In this document: positions 5,534 through 60,424 of the stretch, in pieces
Numbering within the stretch: the stretch's first letter is position 1
Layout of the letters: each line of letters begins with the position of its first letter
Sequence record: MN648445
From: Escherichia phage FP43
Length of the DNA stretch: 64,000 nt
Strand: one strand, 5' to 3'
Made by a program: the position numbers and the translations under genes
Notes under the pieces: model-generated
Databases searched by the model: none
Told to the model about the DNA's origin: nothing
The model's input: only the letters and a program-made list of their open reading frames with translations

Positions 5534-5555
5534 GGGAGACTTCGGTCTCCCTTTT
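5534..5555 (+). terminator. Rho-independent terminator after gene 32
   Basis: Hairpin GGGAGAC-TTCG-GTCTCCC followed by TTTT. Confidence 0.75.
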
Positions 5556-5583
5556 GGGCATCTGTAACTTACCTAAAAAAGTT

Positions 5584-5612
5584 GTTTACTTCCTCCAAGG
5601 ACATGATACTAT
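5584..5612 (+). promoter_or_regulatory. Early promoter
   Basis: GTTTAC, 17-nt spacer, GATACTAT; conserved downstream leader CAACAACATGAGGAAAT before ATG 5642. Confidence 0.6.
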
Positions 5613-5641
5613 AGACCTATCAACAACATGAGGAAATCAAG

Positions 5642-6028
5642 ATGGAAATCGGAAAAACTTATATCATTAACCCTTTATTTAAAGATGACTTTGTCCAAGA
5701 AGCTCCACGCAATAACAGCCGGATGCTAGATTTGATCGAGAAACATGGCCCAAGTTTTGTTGTGGAAGAAGATGAATATGATGGCGACGGCTACAACGTA
5801 GTATGTGTAACCATGGAAGATGGCACAGAATGTTCTGCTGGCGGTCCGGCAGAAACTTATTTTGAAATTTATCCTGACGAGTTCAAATACTTCAACGAGG
5901 TGACTTTAGAAAAGCCTCAACCTATTGACGAAGGTATAGTTTTAGGTGTAACAAAAATTCATTGTGTCGTGGATGAAACTAACGTTGACGAAATCATCGA
6001 ACTTTTGCAAAAAACTTTTAAAAAGTAG
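5642..6028 (+). CDS. Hypothetical protein (paralog A of tandem pair)
   Basis: 128-aa ORF MEIGKTYIINP...HGPSFVV; clear sequence similarity to next ORF; own promoter and RBS GAGGAAA. Confidence 0.6.
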   Translation: MEIGKTYIINPLFKDDFVQEAPRNNSRMLDLIEKHGPSFVVEEDEYDGDGYNVVCVTMEDGTECSAGGPAETYFEIYPDEFKYFNEVTLEKPQPIDEGIVLGVTKIHCVVDETNVDEIIELLQKTFKK

Positions 6029-6066
6029 TATACAAAAAGATAGGACTATGTTATAGTAGTCCTATC
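6028..6066 (+). promoter_or_regulatory. Promoter-like element with perfect 10-bp inverted repeat (GTATAC variant -35)
   Basis: GTATAC at 6028-6033; inverted repeat GATAGGACTA (6039-6048) / TAGTCCTATC (6057-6066) around TGTTATAG; followed by CAAAACAAATGAGAGGAAAT leader. Confidence 0.4.
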
Positions 6067-6089
6067 AAAACAAATGAGAGGAAATCAAA

Positions 6090-6452
6090 ATGAAAATTGG
6101 AAAAACTTATATCATCAATCCAGAATGTAAAGCTATCTTCGCCAATGAATGCCCACAAAACGCCGATATGCTGGCTTTGATTGAGCTTCATGGTCCTAGT
6201 TTTGTTGTAAAAGACATGAACACAGATTATGATGATGATAAATGTGTAACCCGTGTAACTATGCGAGACGGTACTGAATTCGGTTTTGATGGTAAGCCAG
6301 GTTCATATTTTGAGCTTTATGATGATGAGTTTAAACACTTCATCGAGGTATCTCCAGAGTCTATTTCTAAACAATCACTCATCTTTGAAGTGACTACGGA
6401 AAATGCTCGAGATGTGATTGCAGAAATTAAAGAAATTTTTGGAATAAAATAG
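6090..6452 (+). CDS. Hypothetical protein (paralog B of tandem pair)
   Basis: 120-aa ORF MKIGKTYIINP...HGPSFVV; paralogous to 5642..6028. Confidence 0.6.
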   Translation: MKIGKTYIINPECKAIFANECPQNADMLALIELHGPSFVVKDMNTDYDDDKCVTRVTMRDGTEFGFDGKPGSYFELYDDEFKHFIEVSPESISKQSLIFEVTTENARDVIAEIKEIFGIK

Positions 6453-6489
6453 TATACAACAGAGTAATGGTGTGATACTATTACTCTGT
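6452..6489 (+). promoter_or_regulatory. Early-type promoter with -10 inside hairpin loop (GTATAC variant -35)
   Basis: GTATAC 6452-6457, 18-nt spacer, GATACTAT 6474-6481; perfect inverted repeat ACAGAGTAAT (6459-6468) / ATTACTCTGT (6480-6489). Confidence 0.45.
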
Positions 6490-12401: not shown

Positions 12402-12812
12402 ATGAAAGATATTGCCGCCGAATATTCCTTTATTAAATATACAGAATTGGAGCTATTAGAAGATGCAACAATTAAAACAGTTGATGTCCCTAATAAGAAA
12501 AATGTCATATACGCTATTGCTATAGATGACGAACTTGTGTATATTGGTAAAACCAAGAATTTAAAGAAACGCATTAACTATTATCGAACAGCCATAAATC
12601 GAAAAGACCAGACTTCAGATTCAAGAAAATCACTTATGATTTTGGATGCCTTAATGCAAGGCAAAAAGGTTGAATTCTGGGCCCGCCAATGTTTTGACCT
12701 TTCAGTCACCAACGAACTTGGTTCAATGACCATCGCAACAATGGACCTTGAAGAACCGCTTTTTATCAAAAAGTTCAACCCGCCTTGGAATATCCAACAT
12801 AAGAAAAAGTAG
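12402..12812 (+). CDS. denA: Endonuclease II (GIY-YIG family)
   Basis: 136-aa ORF, same length as T4 DenA; GIY-YIG-like motif VIYAIAIDDELVYIGKTKNLKKR; synteny between nrdB and rnlA. Confidence 0.8.
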   Translation: MKDIAAEYSFIKYTELELLEDATIKTVDVPNKKNVIYAIAIDDELVYIGKTKNLKKRINYYRTAINRKDQTSDSRKSLMILDALMQGKKVEFWARQCFDLSVTNELGSMTIATMDLEEPLFIKKFNPPWNIQHKKK

Positions 12813-12841
12813 TTTACACACCACAAGGATTGTGGTATAAT
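12812..12841 (+). promoter_or_regulatory. Early promoter upstream of rnlA
   Basis: GTTTAC 12812-12817, 18-nt spacer containing inverted repeat CCACAA/TTGTGG, TATAAT 12836-12841. Confidence 0.6.
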
Positions 12842-12858: not shown

Positions 12859-13992
<1,134 letters not shown>

Positions 13993-13994
13993 TG

Positions 13995-14024
13995 GTTTAC
14001 AAACACCAAGGAAGGTGTTACTAT
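13995..14024 (+). promoter_or_regulatory. Early promoter
   Basis: GTTTAC 13995-14000, 18-nt spacer, TACTAT 14019-14024. Confidence 0.55.
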
Positions 14025-14054: not shown

Positions 14055-14555
14055 ATGAATATGCAATTGATTACTAATGATATGGTCGTAACCGCTTTTG
14101 GAGACACAACTGACGGAATCCGAGTCTTTAAGAAAGGACGTCCAGTTGGTTATCTTACTGACCTACGTGTTACACTGGCCAAAAATCTTAAAAAGAAAGT
14201 AAAACAAAAAGAGTATTCCACCCGATACGCTGAAGAGAAACGTGAAGCAATGCCGGAAGCAGTTAATGCCATGGTAGAATTTCTTCAAAACAATTTGACT
14301 AAATATGACGCTAATGTTTTCGTTAATATTAGTCAACCAAACGTACATATCGCAGGTATAAAATTCTACATTATTTGCGACCCTCTTACCGACAAATTCA
14401 ACCGCCTCGGAATTTCAAGTCCATATCATACAGCAGAAGAGTTGTGTGTATTGTTTGAATCGTACAAAATCCAGTGTGATGGTTTGAAAACCGTTCTTAT
14501 CAATGGATTATCCCGAGATGAAATCATTGAGATTATTAAAACATGCTTAAAGTAA
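14055..14555 (+). CDS. alc: Probable Alc (host transcription shutoff) by position and size
   Basis: 166-aa ORF between rnlA and the spanin pair, where T4 alc (167 aa) lies; sequence identity not verified. Confidence 0.45.
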   Translation: MNMQLITNDMVVTAFGDTTDGIRVFKKGRPVGYLTDLRVTLAKNLKKKVKQKEYSTRYAEEKREAMPEAVNAMVEFLQNNLTKYDANVFVNISQPNVHIAGIKFYIICDPLTDKFNRLGISSPYHTAEELCVLFESYKIQCDGLKTVLINGLSRDEIIEIIKTCLK

Positions 14556-15186: not shown

Positions 15187-15401
15187 CTAAAGAACAGCAT
15201 GAATACATTAAAGGGCTTATCTATGAATCTGAAATGGCGGCTATGATTTATGGGCGCCAGATTCAACGATTAGAATCTTTGCCTCCGACTAATGACCGCT
15301 TGTTAGTTCAGTCTCGTGCTAATCTGAAAAATGAATATCAGAATAAGTGGGCAGTAGCGACTAAAGCTCTTCACGAGTATATTGAATCTTTAGTAAAATA
15401 G
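15177..15401 (+). CDS. Hypothetical protein (PseT.1 position)
   Basis: 74-aa ORF overlapping o-spanin end. Confidence 0.45.
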   Translation: MPMTKEQHEYIKGLIYESEMAAMIYGRQIQRLESLPPTNDRLLVQSRANLKNEYQNKWAVATKALHEYIESLVK

Positions 15402-15436
15402 TTTACAAACTCTCAGGAGCAGAGTATAATGCTCCT
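15401..15436 (+). promoter_or_regulatory. Early promoter with inverted repeat flanking -10
   Basis: GTTTAC 15401-15406, 18-nt spacer, TATAAT 15425-15430; AGGAGC (15415-15420) / GCTCCT (15431-15436) inverted repeat. Confidence 0.6.
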
Positions 15437-17526: not shown

Positions 17527-17556
17527 GTTTACAACATGGTGGAGTTGTGATACTAT
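17527..17556 (+). promoter_or_regulatory. Early promoter
   Basis: GTTTAC 17527-17532, 18-nt spacer, TGTGATACTAT 17546-17556; leader CAACAAATGAGGAAAT. Confidence 0.6.
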
Positions 17557-17584
17557 AACTCTACCAACAAATGAGGAAATAGAA

Positions 17585-20576: not shown

Positions 20577-20870
20577 GTTTTAGGTGATTCGCTACCTTAG
20601 TGCGGCTAGAAAATCGAGGAGCCGTCGAACTGTCTGATTAATGATTTGCGAATCATTATAGTTTTAAGACCCCGGCAGTTTTACGGTGTACCTCTTGAAT
20701 GTATTTTATACTATCACGCGTCAGAAAAAGGTTATCTGTCTAAGTCGTGGTTGGTATGATGACGGGTTTATGGTTATCCTGTCGTTAAATATCCAAAACC
20801 TATGTTCCCCTTGAGGGCTTGCGCAGGCAATGTCAATAAGTCCTGCATTTTCATTTAAAGAGAATTTATA

Positions 20871-21050: not shown

Positions 21051-21055
21051 TTTTA

Positions 21056-21077
21056 GGGAGACTTCGGTCTCCCTTTT
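21056..21077 (+). terminator. Rho-independent terminator
   Basis: GGGAGAC-TTCG-GTCTCCC followed by TTTT; identical stem-loop to the gene 32 terminator. Confidence 0.75.
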
Positions 21078-21109
21078 GTGCGTTTAGGGCAGAAAAAGTT
21101 TAAAAAGAT

Positions 21110-21138
21110 GTTTACTCTCCTGTAGGATGTGTTACTAT
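21110..21138 (+). promoter_or_regulatory. Early promoter
   Basis: GTTTAC 21110-21115, 17-nt spacer, TGTGTTACTAT ending 21138. Confidence 0.6.
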
Positions 21139-21180
21139 AGACTTGTACCATCTAATCAATAAAACAACCTGGAGAACAAA

Positions 21181-21549
21181 ATGAAAATCAATCTGAACTC
21201 ATACATCAAATGTAAAGACCACGACGGTTATAAAGCTATCGAAATTAAAGAATTCCAGTGGATGTTATACAAAGAGCAATTTGAGATCGTAAGTTGTATG
21301 ACCCCTGAAGGTCCTTCAAATGATTTCTCTTGGAAAATTGTGTTAGCAAACTTTTTCACAGGTGACACATACGAATTAAAAACTATTATTACAGGTAAAA
21401 TTCGCTCAGAAACATATGTTGACGAAGAAACTGGTTACTCTGAAGATGTCACATGGTATCAAAATGGACGCATTACAGCAGATAACCTGATCGAAAAAAT
21501 GAAAGCCAAAGGTGTTTTAAATTTAGACAATTGGATTAAAGTTGCATAA
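21181..21549 (+). CDS. Hypothetical protein
   Basis: 122-aa ORF with own promoter and RBS GGAG. Confidence 0.5.
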   Translation: MKINLNSYIKCKDHDGYKAIEIKEFQWMLYKEQFEIVSCMTPEGPSNDFSWKIVLANFFTGDTYELKTIITGKIRSETYVDEETGYSEDVTWYQNGRITADNLIEKMKAKGVLNLDNWIKVA

Positions 21550-21553
21550 AACA

Positions 21554-21593
21554 GTTTACTTTGGTACAGGTTATGTTATTATAGACCTGTACC
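21554..21593 (+). promoter_or_regulatory. Early promoter with -10 embedded in the loop of a perfect 8-bp inverted repeat
   Basis: GTTTAC 21554-21559; GGTACAGG (21563-21570) / CCTGTACC (21586-21593) flanking TTATGTTATTATAGA containing TATTAT. Confidence 0.6.
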
Positions 21594-21623
21594 AACAAAC
21601 AACTTAAACATCTGGAGAATAAA

Positions 21624-21989
21624 ATGAACTACATCAACTTCGAACGCAAATATGTTTCTAACGGTATCGCTGGTTCTTCTGAAGTTATTTGCTTATGGAA
21701 ACATAAAAATGGTTCAGTATGTGAAATTGAGCAGTATATGACTCCTAATTACGTTTATATGCGATTTGAAAATGGCATCACGGTTTCAATCACGATGGAA
21801 GGTTCCAACTTCAAAATTGCATTAGATGACGATTTCCGTCAGCGTGATTTAGGTACTCATCCTTGCTGGAATGGTGATAATCGTAAACTTCTGGTTAAAA
21901 CTTGGATTCGTCATATCCTGAGTAACCGAGCTAAACCTGAACATCTCGAAGCAATCTTTGATGTAGTTCTTAATGAATTCGATATCTAA
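21624..21989 (+). CDS. Hypothetical protein
   Basis: 121-aa ORF with RBS GGAG. Confidence 0.5.
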   Translation: MNYINFERKYVSNGIAGSSEVICLWKHKNGSVCEIEQYMTPNYVYMRFENGITVSITMEGSNFKIALDDDFRQRDLGTHPCWNGDNRKLLVKTWIRHILSNRAKPEHLEAIFDVVLNEFDI

Positions 21990-22024: not shown

Positions 22025-22639
22025 ATGTTTAAAGTTAATACTTTTTATAAAATGAATTTTAAAAATGGGGATATTACTCCACGCCTTAAAAACATGTTCT
22101 CATATGACCTTATCGAGCCTTTTGAAGTTTTAGAAGTTACTGATGCCGGCTCAGTTTGTGAAATTAGAACTTCTGAAGGTAAAATTTATCAGGCAGGTGT
22201 CGGTAAATTCAGTAATTGTTTTACTTTAATATTCTCGACTGATTTAGATGAGCATTTTATTGAATGTCCTAACCCTAAGGTCTATGAAGTTCCACATCAA
22301 GAAATTAAGAAAAATGGACCGCACGAATATACGAAGGTTGAAACTCCTCACGGCGTGATGTGGCGTCATAACTCTCCTTTTGGAAGTAAAGGAACATTTG
22401 CTCAACTGGCTAAGCCCTACGACGATGAAAAATATGTAGTAGTCCTTTTATCTGAACAGGGTACTCAAGACCGTGGATGTCAACGAAGTGGTTTACTAAG
22501 TGAACTCGAAGCTCATAACCGAGCACGTGAATTCGTTGAGAAAAATCCTGGTTCTGAAGCTCTAGTCATGAAAGCAATTACTCAATATATCACTGCTCAA
22601 CCTGTTGTTCATCCGGTAGAAATTAATTTCATTAAGTAG
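22025..22639 (+). CDS. Hypothetical protein
   Basis: 204-aa ORF, RBS GAGGAAA. Confidence 0.5.
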   Translation: MFKVNTFYKMNFKNGDITPRLKNMFSYDLIEPFEVLEVTDAGSVCEIRTSEGKIYQAGVGKFSNCFTLIFSTDLDEHFIECPNPKVYEVPHQEIKKNGPHEYTKVETPHGVMWRHNSPFGSKGTFAQLAKPYDDEKYVVVLLSEQGTQDRGCQRSGLLSELEAHNRAREFVEKNPGSEALVMKAITQYITAQPVVHPVEINFIK

Positions 22640-22669
22640 TTTACATCCAAGGACGGATTAGAGTATAAT
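22639..22669 (+). promoter_or_regulatory. Early promoter
   Basis: GTTTAC 22639-22644 overlapping upstream stop codon, 19-nt spacer, TATAAT 22664-22669. Confidence 0.5.
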
Positions 22670-22695
22670 GATTTCTTTACTAAGTGGAAAAAAAT

Positions 22696-22893
22696 ATGAA
22701 ATTTTTAATAGCACAAACAGTCCAATTAAAAGGTGTTGGAATTCCTGGGGTGATTTTTAAAGTTCTCCCTGAATTTAAAACCAGCGCTGGAATTATCAAT
22801 GAAGCGTATGCTGTTCAATGGGTTGATTGGACTTCTGACATACGTATGGGTAAAGAGTTATCTCCTATTAAAGGGTTGAAACATGTTGAATAA
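22696..22893 (+). CDS. Hypothetical protein
   Basis: 65 aa from ATG 22696 (track starts at GTG 22684). Confidence 0.4.
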   Translation: MKFLIAQTVQLKGVGIPGVIFKVLPEFKTSAGIINEAYAVQWVDWTSDIRMGKELSPIKGLKHVE

Positions 22894-26370: not shown

Positions 26371-28458
26371 ATGTCTGAACAATTAAATGAAGTGTTTGAA
26401 TCTGAAGGCAGTCTTCCTGTCGTCAATTTGAACCCTAAAGCTAAAGTTCCACAAGTCTGGAAAATTGGTGATATCGATACAAATATTGTAGTTCGTTTAT
26501 TCTCTTACCTTTCCGAAGGCGACGCTGTAAAACAAGTTAAACTTGGCGACAAATACGCTCATGTTGTTATTATGAGTCTGTCTGAAAAGGGTAATCTCGC
26601 TGAATTGAAAAATGGCCTTGGTCCTGCTCCTATTGATGCAATCAACACCATTTTCAATACAGTGTATGAACAGGTTAAAGCTCTTCGTATGGATGCAGTT
26701 CTGTTCCGATTCCCTACCAAGAAATTGAAAGGACGTGGACAACAACTTCAAACTCTTCTTGCTCGTCTAGTTTCTACTAAAACCGGTGGTCGTTTTAAAG
26801 TATTGTCTGCAATGTATCAATTCACAGGTAAACACACCTATGTGATGATGGTTCGTAAAAATGCCAACATTGAAGATATTAAAGGCATCCCTAACATTAA
26901 CACAGAGTTGTACACGAAAGTAGATTCTGATGTTGGCGAAGTTTATGTGAGTAAAAAGACTGGTGAAAAGGTCACCAAAGAAACGGCTATCGCTGGTTCT
27001 ATTGCTGCTGTAGAAGAAAAACGTAAAGATAAGCCTGTTATTGCTCGTACTAAAATTTCTCGTCGTGCTATTGCAGCAAGTCAATCTTTAGAAGCTGACC
27101 GACAAGAAGGTGAGTTATTCCAGAAATACGAAAATTCTGCTAAAGAAGTTAGTGGCCCGGCTACAGCTGAATTACTTCCTGAAGCATATGAAATTGTACT
27201 AGCCCAAGCATCGTCCACAGCAAAAGGCACTTTAGTTGCTGATATCGAAAATAAGATTTATAATCGTATTGATGAATCCTTTAAATTTGCCGATGAAGTT
27301 TCTTATGGTAGTGTTATTAAGCCGACTTTAGAAAAGTTTGCTAAGAAAATTAAAACTGAAAAAACAACATCTGTTAAAGCATTATCTGCTTTTGTTGAAG
27401 CTGCAAATGAAATTGCAGACTCTATTAAAGACGAATGGTTTGAAGATTTTAGACGTGATAATTTCCAACTGCCTGACGACGTTTTAGCTGAAGTATCTGA
27501 AAGAACTTGGAAACAACGTAAATCAGCGTTCTTGTCTAATGTGATGTATACTTATGCCCGAGAATCGGCTAGAGGCACCTTTAATATAACAATGAATCGG
27601 GACCCTAAACAATACTCTGTTGCTGAAAAACGAGCTATTCGTGAATATGCCTCTTCTGCGTATACCGATATCAATAATATGTTGTTAGGTCGTTATAAAC
27701 CGGATTTTTATGATGTTGCGGATGAAGATGAAGTTAAACGCGCTATTGATGGTCTTGATTCGGCGTTTTTAAATGGAGACCGTTTACCTGAAGGACTAAC
27801 GTTATATAGAGCTCAGTCTATCAGAATGCCTATTTACGAAGCAATGGTTAAAAATAAGGTATTCTACTTCAGAAACTATGTTTCCACTTCACTAGCTCCT
27901 ATTATTTTCGGTGGGTTTAAAGAGAACGTTGCCCTTGGACTTGCTCCTGAAGAAGTTCGCAAAGAGCTTAACATTGACAATAATGACGAAGGTGTTACTA
28001 TTTCTCCTAGTCAAGTAAGAACAGCTATGCATGCACCAGAACAAATCCGTGTTAACGTTGGATGGGCTATTGATGGCGCCCATAAAGTTAACGTGATTTA
28101 TCCAGGACAGTTGAGTAATCACCCTAATGAGCAAGAAATTATTTTGCCTAGAGGCATTCTCTTGCAGATAAATAAAATTACAGATGCGTCATCTGATACT
28201 GGTGCAGGTTTAGAATCCAACCTTAAATTTATTCAAGCTGAAGTTATGTCCTCAGACCAGTTGGATGAAGCCGTCATTTATGATGGTGATGTTCTCATGG
28301 AAACAGGCGAGGTGGTTGCTATGACGGGTGAAATCGAATCAGATGAGCCGGTATCGTTCTCCTCATTTGTAGAAAAAACTAGTGCACCTAAAGGTTTGAA
28401 ATTGTTAGCATCTTTAATGGATTTAGAATCAGTTCCGTTTAAATTTGTCCAAGGATAG
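26371..28458 (+). CDS. alt: ADP-ribosyltransferase Alt
   Basis: 695-aa ORF; C-terminal region with ART-like segment (GLTLYRAQS, VFYFRNYVSTSL); C-terminus MPYKFVQG-like ending (SVPFKFVQG); synteny next to gene 30. Confidence 0.85.
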   Translation: MSEQLNEVFESEGSLPVVNLNPKAKVPQVWKIGDIDTNIVVRLFSYLSEGDAVKQVKLGDKYAHVVIMSLSEKGNLAELKNGLGPAPIDAINTIFNTVYEQVKALRMDAVLFRFPTKKLKGRGQQLQTLLARLVSTKTGGRFKVLSAMYQFTGKHTYVMMVRKNANIEDIKGIPNINTELYTKVDSDVGEVYVSKKTGEKVTKETAIAGSIAAVEEKRKDKPVIARTKISRRAIAASQSLEADRQEGELFQKYENSAKEVSGPATAELLPEAYEIVLAQASSTAKGTLVADIENKIYNRIDESFKFADEVSYGSVIKPTLEKFAKKIKTEKTTSVKALSAFVEAANEIADSIKDEWFEDFRRDNFQLPDDVLAEVSERTWKQRKSAFLSNVMYTYARESARGTFNITMNRDPKQYSVAEKRAIREYASSAYTDINNMLLGRYKPDFYDVADEDEVKRAIDGLDSAFLNGDRLPEGLTLYRAQSIRMPIYEAMVKNKVFYFRNYVSTSLAPIIFGGFKENVALGLAPEEVRKELNIDNNDEGVTISPSQVRTAMHAPEQIRVNVGWAIDGAHKVNVIYPGQLSNHPNEQEIILPRGILLQINKITDASSDTGAGLESNLKFIQAEVMSSDQLDEAVIYDGDVLMETGEVVAMTGEIESDEPVSFSSFVEKTSAPKGLKLLASLMDLESVPFKFVQG

Positions 28459-28487
28459 TTTACAAACACATGGATGTGTGATACTAT
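28458..28487 (+). promoter_or_regulatory. Early promoter
   Basis: GTTTAC 28458-28463 overlapping alt stop, 18-nt spacer, TGTGATACTAT; leader CAACAACATGAGGAAA. Confidence 0.6.
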
Positions 28488-28516
28488 CATCCCATCAACA
28501 ACATGAGGAAAACGTT

Positions 28517-28810: not shown

Positions 28811-28819
28811 ACCCCTAAA

Positions 28820-28842
28820 GGGAGACAACGTCTCCCTTTTTT
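28820..28842 (+). terminator. Rho-independent terminator (convergent junction with gene 54)
   Basis: GGGAGAC-AAC-GTCTCCC followed by TTTTTT. Confidence 0.75.
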
Positions 28843-28843
28843 C

Positions 28844-44111: not shown

Positions 44112-44141
44112 AGACTTATCAACTACAGAGGAGTAAACAAA

Positions 44142-58841: not shown

Positions 58842-60424
58842 TATTTTACCTTAATGATATAGTTTAAAGAAATGTTCCATGGACGTGTTTCATTTCCAAT
58901 TAATTCAGGACGATTTAATGTATATTTGGAATTTCGTTGTGATGCCGGGTCAATTTCATATCCGTCATTGGTGAAGTATGAACGGTTATCCCAGTCGAGT
59001 CCTTTACGTGTACCAACAAAATTTGATCTACGGGTATTACCGAATGCTCCAGAATCATCATGTTCACCAAAACCGCCAGCATGCTTATGATATGACATCT
59101 GTTGTTTCTGTACTTCACCAACATATCCACCAGTACAACCTACACCTAATCTAGGCTTACCAAACTGGTCATTACCATTAACATTTGGATTTGTTAAGTG
59201 AGAGCCACGACCTGAGCCACGAACAAATAATCCACGCATATCAGGCAAGCCTGGGTTAGAAGAACTACCACCATATCGTGTCCCAATTCTGGAAGCATAT
59301 ACCGGACATTCTGAAGCAGAAACGGTCCCACCGTGACAGAAGCGCCAGTCAGAACTCGGTAAACTATCTGCAGCCCACATTGTAATAGCGCCAACTGGAA
59401 GAATTCGGTCTAATTCATTTTGAGTCACAATACGATTGCCTTGAATATAACCACCGGTCATATTGACATTACCCGTTATATTAGCACCACCAGAACCAAC
59501 CGTCAACGTATTATTAATGCGAAGCGTGCCATTAATAGTTTGTCCGCCTCGTTGGTGGATAACATCAGCATTCCAAGCAAGGGCAGAAGAACCATCACCA
59601 CCTGATTGGTTACCCGCTTGTGTAGTTAAACGAACAACTCCACGTAAAGAAGTTGTAGCCCCACGCCCGTTTAATGTTGCGCCGGTCACTACAACTGAAG
59701 AGTTGTTACTATTTACTTCAGTCTGTGTCCCTAGTTTAACGACGCCTTTATTAGTTTCTGATGCTACTGAATTCATAAAGGTATAAGGTGAAATTGCATA
59801 GCCTTCACGCAGGGTGCCTTGTTGCGCTTGAGCAACTGTAGCCAAACGAACAACACCGGTAATAGATTCGGTGGCGTCACTATTATTTGGAGCAATTTGC
59901 GAAATAAGTTTAATTGCTAATTGCTGGGTTTTTAACGGGGTCATTGCCGTTGTATCGTCAGAACCAGCTAATGCCGCAGCAGAAGTTGAAATTTTAATTA
60001 CACCATTTGTTGCTTCTGTTGACACTTTTGTCTGAAATACATCGTCTATTTTTTGATTCAATTTAAGCGGAGTAATTGATGCATCGTCAATAGTTCCTGT
60101 TACTGCTTCATCTTCAGTAGCATAACGAGTTAAGCCATATTGAGTTTCTGTTGCATTAGGATATTGTAGACGAGCATTCAGCGATGCCGGAGTAACAGCT
60201 TTACTATTATCTAATCCATCAATAACTTCTTGTGGAGTAGCTATTTGAATAATTCCTGGTGTAGTAGTTGTTGCTTCCGGTACACCATTAACACCTGAAG
60301 GAGAAATAGCAGCTAATGCGGCTTGGACATTAGTGACTGTATCTGGAAAATTCGACCCCGTAGGGTCGAATTCAACGTAAATAGATTCATTTGAAACGTG
60401 TTGGTATGTATTGTTATTACTCAT
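58841..60424 (-). CDS. 12: Short tail fiber gp12
   Basis: 527-aa ORF, same length as T4 gp12. Confidence 0.9.

Follow-up and report, generated by a model that had tools for sequence, protein, structure and literature searches.

What an inverted repeat does around the -10 element of an early promoter is the question raised by the junction of genes 30.8 and 30.7 in Escherichia phage FP43 (sequence record MN648445), within a stretch of 64,000 nucleotides that was analysed as a whole and is hereafter called the window. At this junction, an early promoter, with the 30.8 homologue (21181-21549) upstream of it and the 30.7 homologue (21624-21989) downstream, carries a perfect inverted repeat whose arms enclose the -10 hexamer. 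A preliminary description of the same DNA had listed this repeat together with four others, had preferred a DNA-level role (protein-binding site, cruciform or recombination hotspot) to an RNA hairpin, and had noted a resemblance to the promoter/stem-loop cassettes proposed to mediate module exchange in T4-type phages. The comparative analysis presented here identifies the embedded stems, on sequence grounds, as the promoter-early stem-loop (PeSL) cassette that has already been described, and favours a stem selected on the mRNA-sense strand. The cassettes are probably PeSL-type composites, in which a strong sigma-70 early promoter is overlapped by an mRNA-sense hairpin that would form in read-through RNA and act as an attenuator or stabiliser. 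By its sequence, the window belongs to a Mosigvirus (RB69/ATK47-like), a T4-type phage; the region of the 30.8/30.7 promoter is 97% identical to that of the Mosigvirus phages p000y, LH01, and ATK47, and a 361-bp piece is 99.7% identical to phage Mizar.

Inverted repeats embedded in early promoters

The 30.8/30.7 promoter (+ strand; cassettes are designated below by their first position, here 21554) has the -35 hexamer GTTTAC at 21554-21559, read directly and from the orthologous T4 sequence upstream of gene 30.7. The left arm TTGGTACAGGT (21561-21571) lies in the promoter spacer, 5' of the predicted +1, and the right arm ACCTGTACCAA (21585-21595) contains the predicted transcription start (about 21589), with the extended -10 TGtTATTAT (21574-21582) within the 13-nt loop. 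The promoter, with TG before its -10, was also listed by a generic sigma-70 promoter/terminator scan, the counts of which equal those in shuffled sequence and which serves only to list single sites. The leader that follows (21596-21626), with the Shine-Dalgarno sequence GGAG at 21614-21617 and the start codon of the 30.7 homologue at 21624-21626, is predicted to lack structure in the transcript that starts at this promoter. All five repeats of the preliminary description are present where it had placed them. The one at 21554, given there as 21563-21593, was correctly located but is longer (21561-21571 / 21585-21595, 11 bp), and the one at 15415-15436 was likewise correctly located but has a stem of 7 bp (AGGAGCA / TGCTCCT) instead of 6. 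The repeat at 12821-12835, for which a -10 in the loop had been claimed, proved to be a 7-bp stem (12820-12836) in the spacer, with its right arm touching just the first base of the -10.

Early promoters were predicted in the window from an intergenic pattern (GTTTAC/GTATAC, N17-18, TAnnnT, often with TG) with A-rich sequence 5' of it, and the enrichment set comprised 14 intergenic early promoters chosen by the -35/-10 pattern alone, repeats being ignored. Perfect stems of at least 7 bp were detected at five of the 14, against 0.24 expected, and none of 2000 shuffles in which the -10 was kept in place gave as high a count; with a threshold of at least 6 bp, the values were 6/14 and 1.12 (P = 5e-4, shuffles). 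The embedded repeats are non-random, and the association of inverted repeats with early promoters, as previously supposed, is thereby upheld. Across the whole 64 kb, inverted repeats of at least 10 bp with a loop of up to 22 nt number six, comprising three promoter repeats and two intrinsic terminators; also among these six longest short-range repeats is one of 10 perfect pairs around a tetraloop (AATTCGACCC-cgta-GGGTCGAATT, 60349-60372), located in a late-gene coding region on the - strand. As a negative control only, metagenomes were searched with a pattern that kept the same -35/TGn/-10 frame and left both arms free, and at least 7 of 8 complementary arm positions were found in none of the 128 matches listed, which were unrelated AT-rich promoters with no 30.7 homologue among them.

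Conservation and compensatory change in relatives

The genomes scanned alongside the window were T4, PD112, RB69, dhaeg (Dhakavirus), P479 (Gaprivervirus), Kp17-11 (Jiaodavirus), Melville (Gelderlandvirus), and Merlin (Moonvirus), and embedded stems were found in all nine genomes (eight genera), so that the conservation of stems across relatives expected from the preliminary description was confirmed. T4 itself has them at the 30.7, cd.2, and frd.1 promoters. As judged from the sequences compared, the stems are conserved through compensatory change. In the 6028 stem, a compensatory A-T to G-C change distinguishes the window (GATAGGACTA, 6039-6048 / TAGTCCTATC, 6057-6066) from RB69 (GATAGGGCTA / TAGCCCTATC), and in the 6452 stem AGAGTA / TACTCT of the window corresponds to AGGGTA / TACCCT of T4, again an A-T to G-C change. 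In the cd.2 family (17527 alignment of relatives), 98.6% of cells are paired, three pairs are changed on both sides, and the covariation reaches 0.357 compared with 0.24 in shuffles (0/500 shuffles as high). The outermost varying pair of the 15401 family is A-U in the window and dhaeg, G·U in RB69 and the L002 group, and G-C in P479. The frd.1 promoter bears a stem in every genome, with unrelated arms (ACAGAGTAAT, AGGGTAGTA, TAAGGCTATGGTA, GGAGCTATGCT, GGGTTATGGT, GGTGTAAGAT, ATGGGGCTAT); as the register of the stem varies from genus to genus (i+j = 33, 34 or 39), stems are reported per sequence for this family and fixed-column covariation was dropped. The consensus hexamers of the orthologous T4 promoters are the same whether a stem is present or absent.

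The arms of the 21554 repeat are invariant in T4, RB69, dhaeg, and P479 (four genera) while the flanks diverge, the sole variant being a C-to-T change that gives a G·T pair. The sequence TATAGACNTGTACCA is also present in the 30.8 promoter (-35 at 21110-21115, -10 at 21133-21138), where this conserved right-arm sequence (21139-21152) has no left partner, and in Kp17-11 the conserved right-arm sequence is kept and a different left arm pairs further downstream. Since the right arm is conserved even when unpartnered (21110; Kp17-11), a protein need not be invoked for part of the invariance at 21554.

At 133300-133313, the T4 RefSeq record has the note 'inverted complement of previously reported sequence; corrects the early promoter Pe133295', and these 14 nt are the loop of the cd.2 promoter hairpin, the orthologue of window 17527-17566. 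There was no sign of an invertible promoter switch: a search of IMG/VR for the 30.7 promoter with an inverted loop, for which the -35 context was used since a perfect palindrome reads the same on either strand, returned no inverted copy and 13 normal ones, and the loop orientation was identical in all orthologues compared, with none inverted. The note in the T4 record is most simply read as a sequencing correction.

Strand and context of the stems

Three kinds of evidence bear on whether the stems act as RNA or DNA. Among 29 unique strong stems, the internal mismatches comprise eight G·T and no A·C (binomial P = 0.008; base composition predicts 0.47 G·T), compared with six G·T and five A·C in weak, chance-level stems. 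RNA folding of 39 structured promoters gave a more stable sense than antisense strand in 36 (mean -2.6 kcal/mol, P = 1e-6), and no such bias was seen in unstructured promoters or shuffles. In addition, stems of at least 8 Watson-Crick pairs occur at 27 of the 48 promoters that abut an upstream stop codon and at 0/15 of those behind a canonical terminator (Fisher P = 5e-5) such as GGGAGAC-UUCG-GUCUCCC-UUUU. Paralogous cassettes with the same right-hand sequence follow the same rule, the left arm being present only where a separate terminator is lacking (21554 vs 21110; dhaeg 4282 vs 5359).

The promoters are internal to co-oriented polycistronic early units, and RNA reading through from the upstream gene would therefore contain both arms. 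Folding predictions for this read-through RNA gave z values of -3.6 to -5.5 at 6028, 6452, 17527, and 21554, whereas the promoters' own leaders at these four sites are predicted to be fully open (folding energy 0). The preliminary description had reasoned that most of each stem lies upstream of +1, which holds for the promoter's own transcript if +1 is placed by the 7-nt spacing rule, and had concluded that the role is at the DNA level; this conclusion did not take read-through RNA into account. An RNA hairpin is favoured by the G·T-only mismatches together with the greater stability of the sense strand, by the G·U intermediates, and by the exclusion of stems where separate terminators exist. 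A single common binding protein is argued against by the different arms of different promoters.

Cassettes and contrast sites in the window

At least nine cassettes are distributed over the 27-kb early region, within the frd.x, pseT.x, cd.x, 30.x, and alt.x clusters of small variable open reading frames (ORFs). The early genes, whose order was assigned against the annotated T4 and RB69 records, lie on the + strand between 2,000 and 28,800 and run from rnh, dsbA, 33, 59, 32, frd.x, frd, td, nrdA, nrdB, denA, and rnlA through alc, pseT.x, pseT, cd.x, cd, 31, rIII, 30.9-30.1, and 30 to alt. The upstream stop codon and the -35 are 0-5 nt apart at 6028, 6452, 12812, 13995, 15401, 17527, 21554, and 28458, the upstream TAG often overlapping the G of GTTTAC, and a Shine-Dalgarno sequence and ATG come within the next 25-45 nt.

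On the + strand, the cassette at 6028-6066 lies upstream of an frd.2-like ORF, with a -35 GTATAC (6028-6033) that overlaps the upstream stop codon and a -10 TATAGT (6052-6057), and the one at 6452-6489 lies upstream of frd.1 (-35 at 6452-6457; -10 TACTAT at 6476-6481) with the arms ACAGAGTAAT (6459-6468) and ATTACTCTGT (6480-6489); the arms of both were found by the scan and by direct reading. The cassette at 15401-15436 holds its -10 TATAAT (15425-15430) in the loop between arms at 15415-15421 and 15430-15436. The cassette at the cd.3/cd.2 junction (17527-17566), orthologous to the T4 early promoter Pe133295, has a -10 TACTAT (17551-17556) and the arms TGGTGGAGTT (17537-17546) and AACTCTACCA (17557-17566), which form 10 pairs including one G·T. 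Two + strand cassettes are of the spacer type, namely 12812-12841, whose 7-bp stem has the geometry of the RB49 spacer-class PeSLs, and 13995-14024 upstream of alc, with a 6-bp stem (AACACC, 14002-14007 / GGTGTT, 14014-14019) and the loop AAGGAA. Downstream of alt, a weak, bulged version (28458-28495, + strand) pairs ATGGATG (28470-28476) with CATCCCAT (28488-28495) around the -10 (28482-28487), and its orthologues in other phages bear spacer stems (CCACA-agga-TGTGG, GCAC-aaggaa-GTGC). A further early-type promoter at 22639-22699, which was missed by the pattern scan, has a GTTTAC overlapped by a TAG, a spacer of 19 nt where the others have 17-18, TATAAT, and a weak spacer stem ATCC-aaggac-GGAT. 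The stem sites at 17537-17566, 14002-14019, 28470-28495, and 22639 are additions to those listed previously. The spacer-type stems share Shine-Dalgarno-like AAGGA(A) loops in mid-spacer (12827-12829, 14008-14013, 22648-22653), a sequence that stands stemless at 5597-5601 and recurs as a loop in the two stems just given from other genera.

Different arrangements are seen where a terminator is present. A canonical terminator on the + strand (AGGGAGAC-ttcg-GTCTCCCT-TTTT, 21055-21078) precedes the 30.8 promoter (21055-21152 in all), and another (5534-5555, + strand) precedes an early promoter with its -35 at 5584 and without an embedded stem (5534-5612 in all). The promoters at 2289 and 44082, which are unit heads with no co-oriented gene upstream, have no stem. 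All genuine terminators in the window (5534, 21055, 26314, 28817) combine a GC-rich stem, a 3-8 nt loop, and a U-run. The hairpin at 28817-28843 (AAAGGGAGAC-aac-GTCTCCCTTT), with A and T runs on either side, lies between the convergent early (+) and baseplate (-) genes and resembles an intrinsic terminator that works in both directions.

The predicted transcripts at 5619-5641, 6064-6089, 17563-17584, 28494-28516, and 44118-44141 open with a conserved leader rich in C and A and poor in G (AUCAACAAC...AUGAGG), with a predicted folding energy of 0 kcal/mol for most, -1.3 for 5584, and -3.5 for 28458. An unusually long non-coding stretch (~290 nt, 20577-20870) separates rIII from 30.9 and contains a hairpin TAATGATT-tgcg-AATCATTA at 20639-20658; at roughly the matching position (around 20851-20860), the ATK47 record has an 'ori type 2 repeat'. 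A search of the whole window with Rfam covariance models yielded no match at the gathering score, the only match at the flagged 21554 site being a chance-level microRNA hit (E = 0.21).

Proposed mechanism and alternative explanations

In the proposed mechanism, the cassette promoter stands directly behind the stop codon of a co-oriented upstream gene, and polymerase arriving from upstream would transcribe both arms, giving a stable hairpin that follows the upstream cistron immediately on its 3' side. Transcription from the embedded promoter would begin within the right arm and produce an unstructured, well-translated leader (AUCAACAAC...GGAG...AUG); under the usual 7-nt spacing rule, the predicted start falls in the last bases of the right arm, so that the promoter's own transcript would lack the hairpin. 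In such compact junctions, the hairpin most likely replaces a separate terminator hairpin, whereby read-through would be attenuated and/or the 3' end of the upstream message protected, and the conserved cassette would also offer homology for the swapping of neighbouring ORFs. The +1 position, the existence of read-through RNA, and the attenuator or stabiliser role are what we infer here.

Several observations weigh against this mechanism. The 21554 site alone tells neither strand nor level (DNA or RNA), because a perfect palindrome folds equally on both strands (-19.5 vs -19.6 kcal/mol), and its invariant arms show no covariation of their own; with a perfect repeat and invariant arms, the case for RNA at this site comes from the cassette family and not from the site. 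Furthermore, no U-run follows the embedded hairpins, whose tails are CAAAACAA, CAAACAAC, and ATGGATAA (CAACAA or CAAAAC types), and with loops of 8-13 nt they are not canonical intrinsic terminators. The G·T bias would suit a hairpin in the non-template DNA strand as well, and the P values given above are optimistic, as orthologous promoters of different genomes are not independent.

That last fit is the basis of an explanation in which a hairpin in the non-template strand would present a single-stranded -10 to sigma-70 and aid open-complex formation, as at an N4-like hairpin promoter but with the host polymerase. The sense-strand bias would be expected here too, and the -10 lies in or beside the loop at 6028, 15401, and 21554; many stems, however, pair part of the -10 (inner pairs of 6452 and 17527) or lie wholly in the spacer (12812, 13995), promoters preceded by terminators manage without stems, and the T4 orthologues keep their consensus hexamers with or without them, which makes this explanation very improbable. 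A DNA-level element of another kind, a palindrome acting as the site of a dimeric regulator or as a cruciform that modulates the promoter, e.g., during early shut-off, would suit a palindrome of 11 perfect pairs that has the -10 at its centre, with arms that are invariant across four genera amid divergent flanks and that fold as single-stranded DNA (z = -4.6), and the shut-off of T4 early promoters is, according to a review, mechanistically unexplained. It is nonetheless considered unlikely, as the arms differ wholly between promoters and orthologues and offer no common recognition sequence, the G·T-only mismatches and sense-strand preference are unexpected for a symmetric duplex or cruciform, and the stems are absent behind terminators and at unit heads, although a DNA operator would not depend on upstream transcription; the invariance at 21554 is explicable without a protein, given the unpartnered right arms described above. 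In its simplest form, a palindromic operator for one common dimeric protein, this explanation is ruled out by the 29 unique stems with unrelated arms. The possibility that the stems are a functionless, neutral by-product of AT-rich promoter sequence might draw on the shortness of some listed stems (6-7 bp) and on the values of just P = 0.01-0.1 for 12812, 13995, and 15401 taken singly. The collective enrichment over shuffles, the compensatory change that conserves stems across genera, and the dependence of stems on junction context led to its rejection, and chance is hardly credible as an explanation.

The two remaining alternatives concern what lies on either side of the promoter. If the stem-loop were mainly a recombination device, cassettes and hairpins would be hot spots for the excision, insertion, and swapping of ORFs (PeSL shuffling, minicircles), and the 30.8/30.7 locus has much to recommend this. 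Homology between T4 and the window sets in precisely at the -35 of the 30.7 promoter, and PD112 differs from T4 by a clean replacement of the 30.8 ORF, whose left limit is the 30.8 cassette (up to and including the ATG) and whose right limit falls 16 nt upstream of the 30.7 -35. The cassettes flanking 30.8 (21095-21185, 21540-21630) are direct repeats, about 70% identical, so that excision of 30.8 as a circle would be possible, and the equivalent leaders of dhaeg match almost completely for about 45 nt. Moreover, the invariant core of the 30.7 promoter is found with differing combinations of upstream and downstream flank types, the 15401-type cassette precedes different genes in dhaeg and the window, and minicircles have been shown experimentally in RB49/phi1. 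On the other side, homology breakpoints (ends of BLAST alignments, eight genomes) were no commoner at promoter junctions (33/88) than at the remaining gene junctions (87/272; odds ratio 1.28, P = 0.36), a crude comparison because alignment ends also mirror plain divergence; homologous exchange requires conserved sequence only and no stem; and the compensatory change, the G·U bias, and the exclusion by terminators are left unexplained. Module exchange by cassettes, as put forward in the preliminary description, is thus well supported by the sequences at the 30.8/30.7 locus, where 30.8 has been swapped between two cassettes, and not supported genome-wide, and recombination as the main role of the stem seems a minor possibility. 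About as unlikely as the regulator site or cruciform is a translational discrimination by transcript origin, in which the hairpin would alter downstream translation from read-through RNA relative to own-promoter RNA. Pairings against the Shine-Dalgarno sequence formed by spacers after the -35, with covarying flanking bases, occur in dhaeg, Kp17-11, Melville, Merlin, and T4, the 30.7 junction of Melville and Merlin having such a pairing where the Escherichia coli phages have the 21554 hairpin, and weak versions exist at the window promoters 5584 and 21110. These weak pairings are no better than shuffles (z = -0.5 to -0.6), and the right arm of the strong hairpins in the window ends at least 20 nt before the Shine-Dalgarno sequence; both this sequence and the AUG stay free in the fold predicted for read-through RNA, indicating that these are not hairpins that sequester the ribosome-binding site.

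Anti-Shine-Dalgarno pairings in other genera

In T4, the hairpins of lysozyme (e), gene 49, soc, and I-TevI are translational, and a promoter within the hairpin frees the ribosome-binding site. The cassettes resemble these in that the 5' arm lies upstream of the internal start and only read-through RNA would be structured, and differ from them in that the stems of the window exclude the ribosome-binding site and the internal promoter is early, not late. In other genera, the alc and 30.7 promoters follow the same logic with their anti-Shine-Dalgarno pairings: the spacer sequence immediately behind the -35 is paired with the ribosome-binding site further downstream, which would be blocked only in read-through RNA. 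The sites are dhaeg 13394-13460, Kp17-11 14058-14125, and, on the reverse strands, those of Melville, Merlin, and the T4 alc promoter (record about 136336), with the pairs CTCCTCAT / ATGAGGAG, CCTCATCA / TGATGAGG, CTCCATTTGGTTG / CAACCAAATGGAG, and CTCCGTTGTATG / CATACAACGGAG, and GTCC(C)TCGTGTT / AACATGAGGAC in T4. At alc, this pairing in other genera contrasts with the spacer stem at 13995 of the window.

A broader and more tentative idea, possible but not the likelier outcome, is that the cassettes are 'promoter-of-origin tags', such that each downstream cistron would exist as a structured read-through isoform and an unstructured own-promoter isoform differing in decay and/or translation, as a general rule of T4-like early regions that would make the cassettes more than compact terminators. 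The idea builds on the 5' arm lying upstream of the predicted +1, as the anti-Shine-Dalgarno sequence right after the -35 does in several other genera, and the hairpin type and the anti-Shine-Dalgarno type might be interchangeable solutions at the same junction (30.7, alc).

Relation to known promoter/stem-loop cassettes

PeSLs were described in the T4-type phages RB49 and phi1, where G-T pairs are tolerated, a Shine-Dalgarno sequence and ATG follow, inter-cassette recombination yields minicircles, and the stem-loop, one example of which lowered lacZ expression as strongly as rrnB T1, was read as a terminator or attenuator of upstream transcription (Arbiol et al. 2010, PMC2839356). As defined there, the stem-loop lies next to or across the promoter, most often in the interval from -35 to -10 or over the -10, and the cassettes recur chiefly in hyperplastic regions of small variable ORFs. 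The likeness to T4-type cassettes pointed out in the preliminary description was substantiated when RB49, scanned with the same script, gave the two geometries of the window, a spacer class (TTGACA-GGGGATC-n3-GATCCCC-TATACT) and a class with the -10 in the loop (GGGAGTA-gTAAGA-TACTCCC, the right arm ending 6 nt after the -10). The cassettes of the window share with those of RB49/phi1 the stop codon in an AT-rich stretch, often a TAG overlapping the -35, the strong early promoter of the sigma-70 type, the stem-loop that overlaps the -10 or lies between it and the -35, with tolerated G-T pairs, the Shine-Dalgarno sequence and start codon that follow, and the occurrence of many copies among small non-essential ORFs with flanking ORFs that differ between relatives. 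In contrast to RB49/phi1, their hexamers are of the T4 type (GTTTAC ... TAnnAT) and not TTGACA ... TATAAT, their arms are far more varied and not poly-G/poly-C, and their loops are longer (8-13 nt); terminator activity and minicircles are experimental results in RB49/phi1, whereas the cassettes of the window are known from their sequence.

PeSLs of PST/T4 and nt-1/KVP40 have also been reported, with the stem placed upstream of the promoter (Comeau et al. 2014, PMC4122927). The T-even-type consensus (TTTACW-N17-TAYWAT) is common to these and the window, as would be an association with indels and ORF swaps between close relatives, and the terminator-then-promoter junctions at 5534-5612 and 21055-21138 match this arrangement, whereas the 30.8/30.7-type cassettes carry the stem inside the promoter, unlike the PST/T4 PeSLs. 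RB69-like phages were not treated in either paper (PMC2839356, PMC4122927). With intrinsic (Rho-independent) terminators, the cassettes have in common a stable predicted RNA hairpin right after the stop codon and mutual exclusion with genuine terminators, but their hairpins have no U-tract, longer loops, and less GC-rich stems.

Implications

Taken together, what the preliminary description had observed is confirmed and its interpretation is partly supported. The cassettes open no new kind of mechanism. Instead, they carry the PeSL architecture beyond the RB49 group, into RB69-like and other T-even genera, the embedded stems of T4 included, and add comparative evidence that the stem is selected on the mRNA-sense strand and takes the place of a separate terminator where junctions are compact. 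Annotators should avoid interpreting such repeats as operators or cruciforms. In phage engineering, the cassettes may serve as markers of natural ORF-swap boundaries, and deleting them may affect both read-through and how stable neighbouring messages are.

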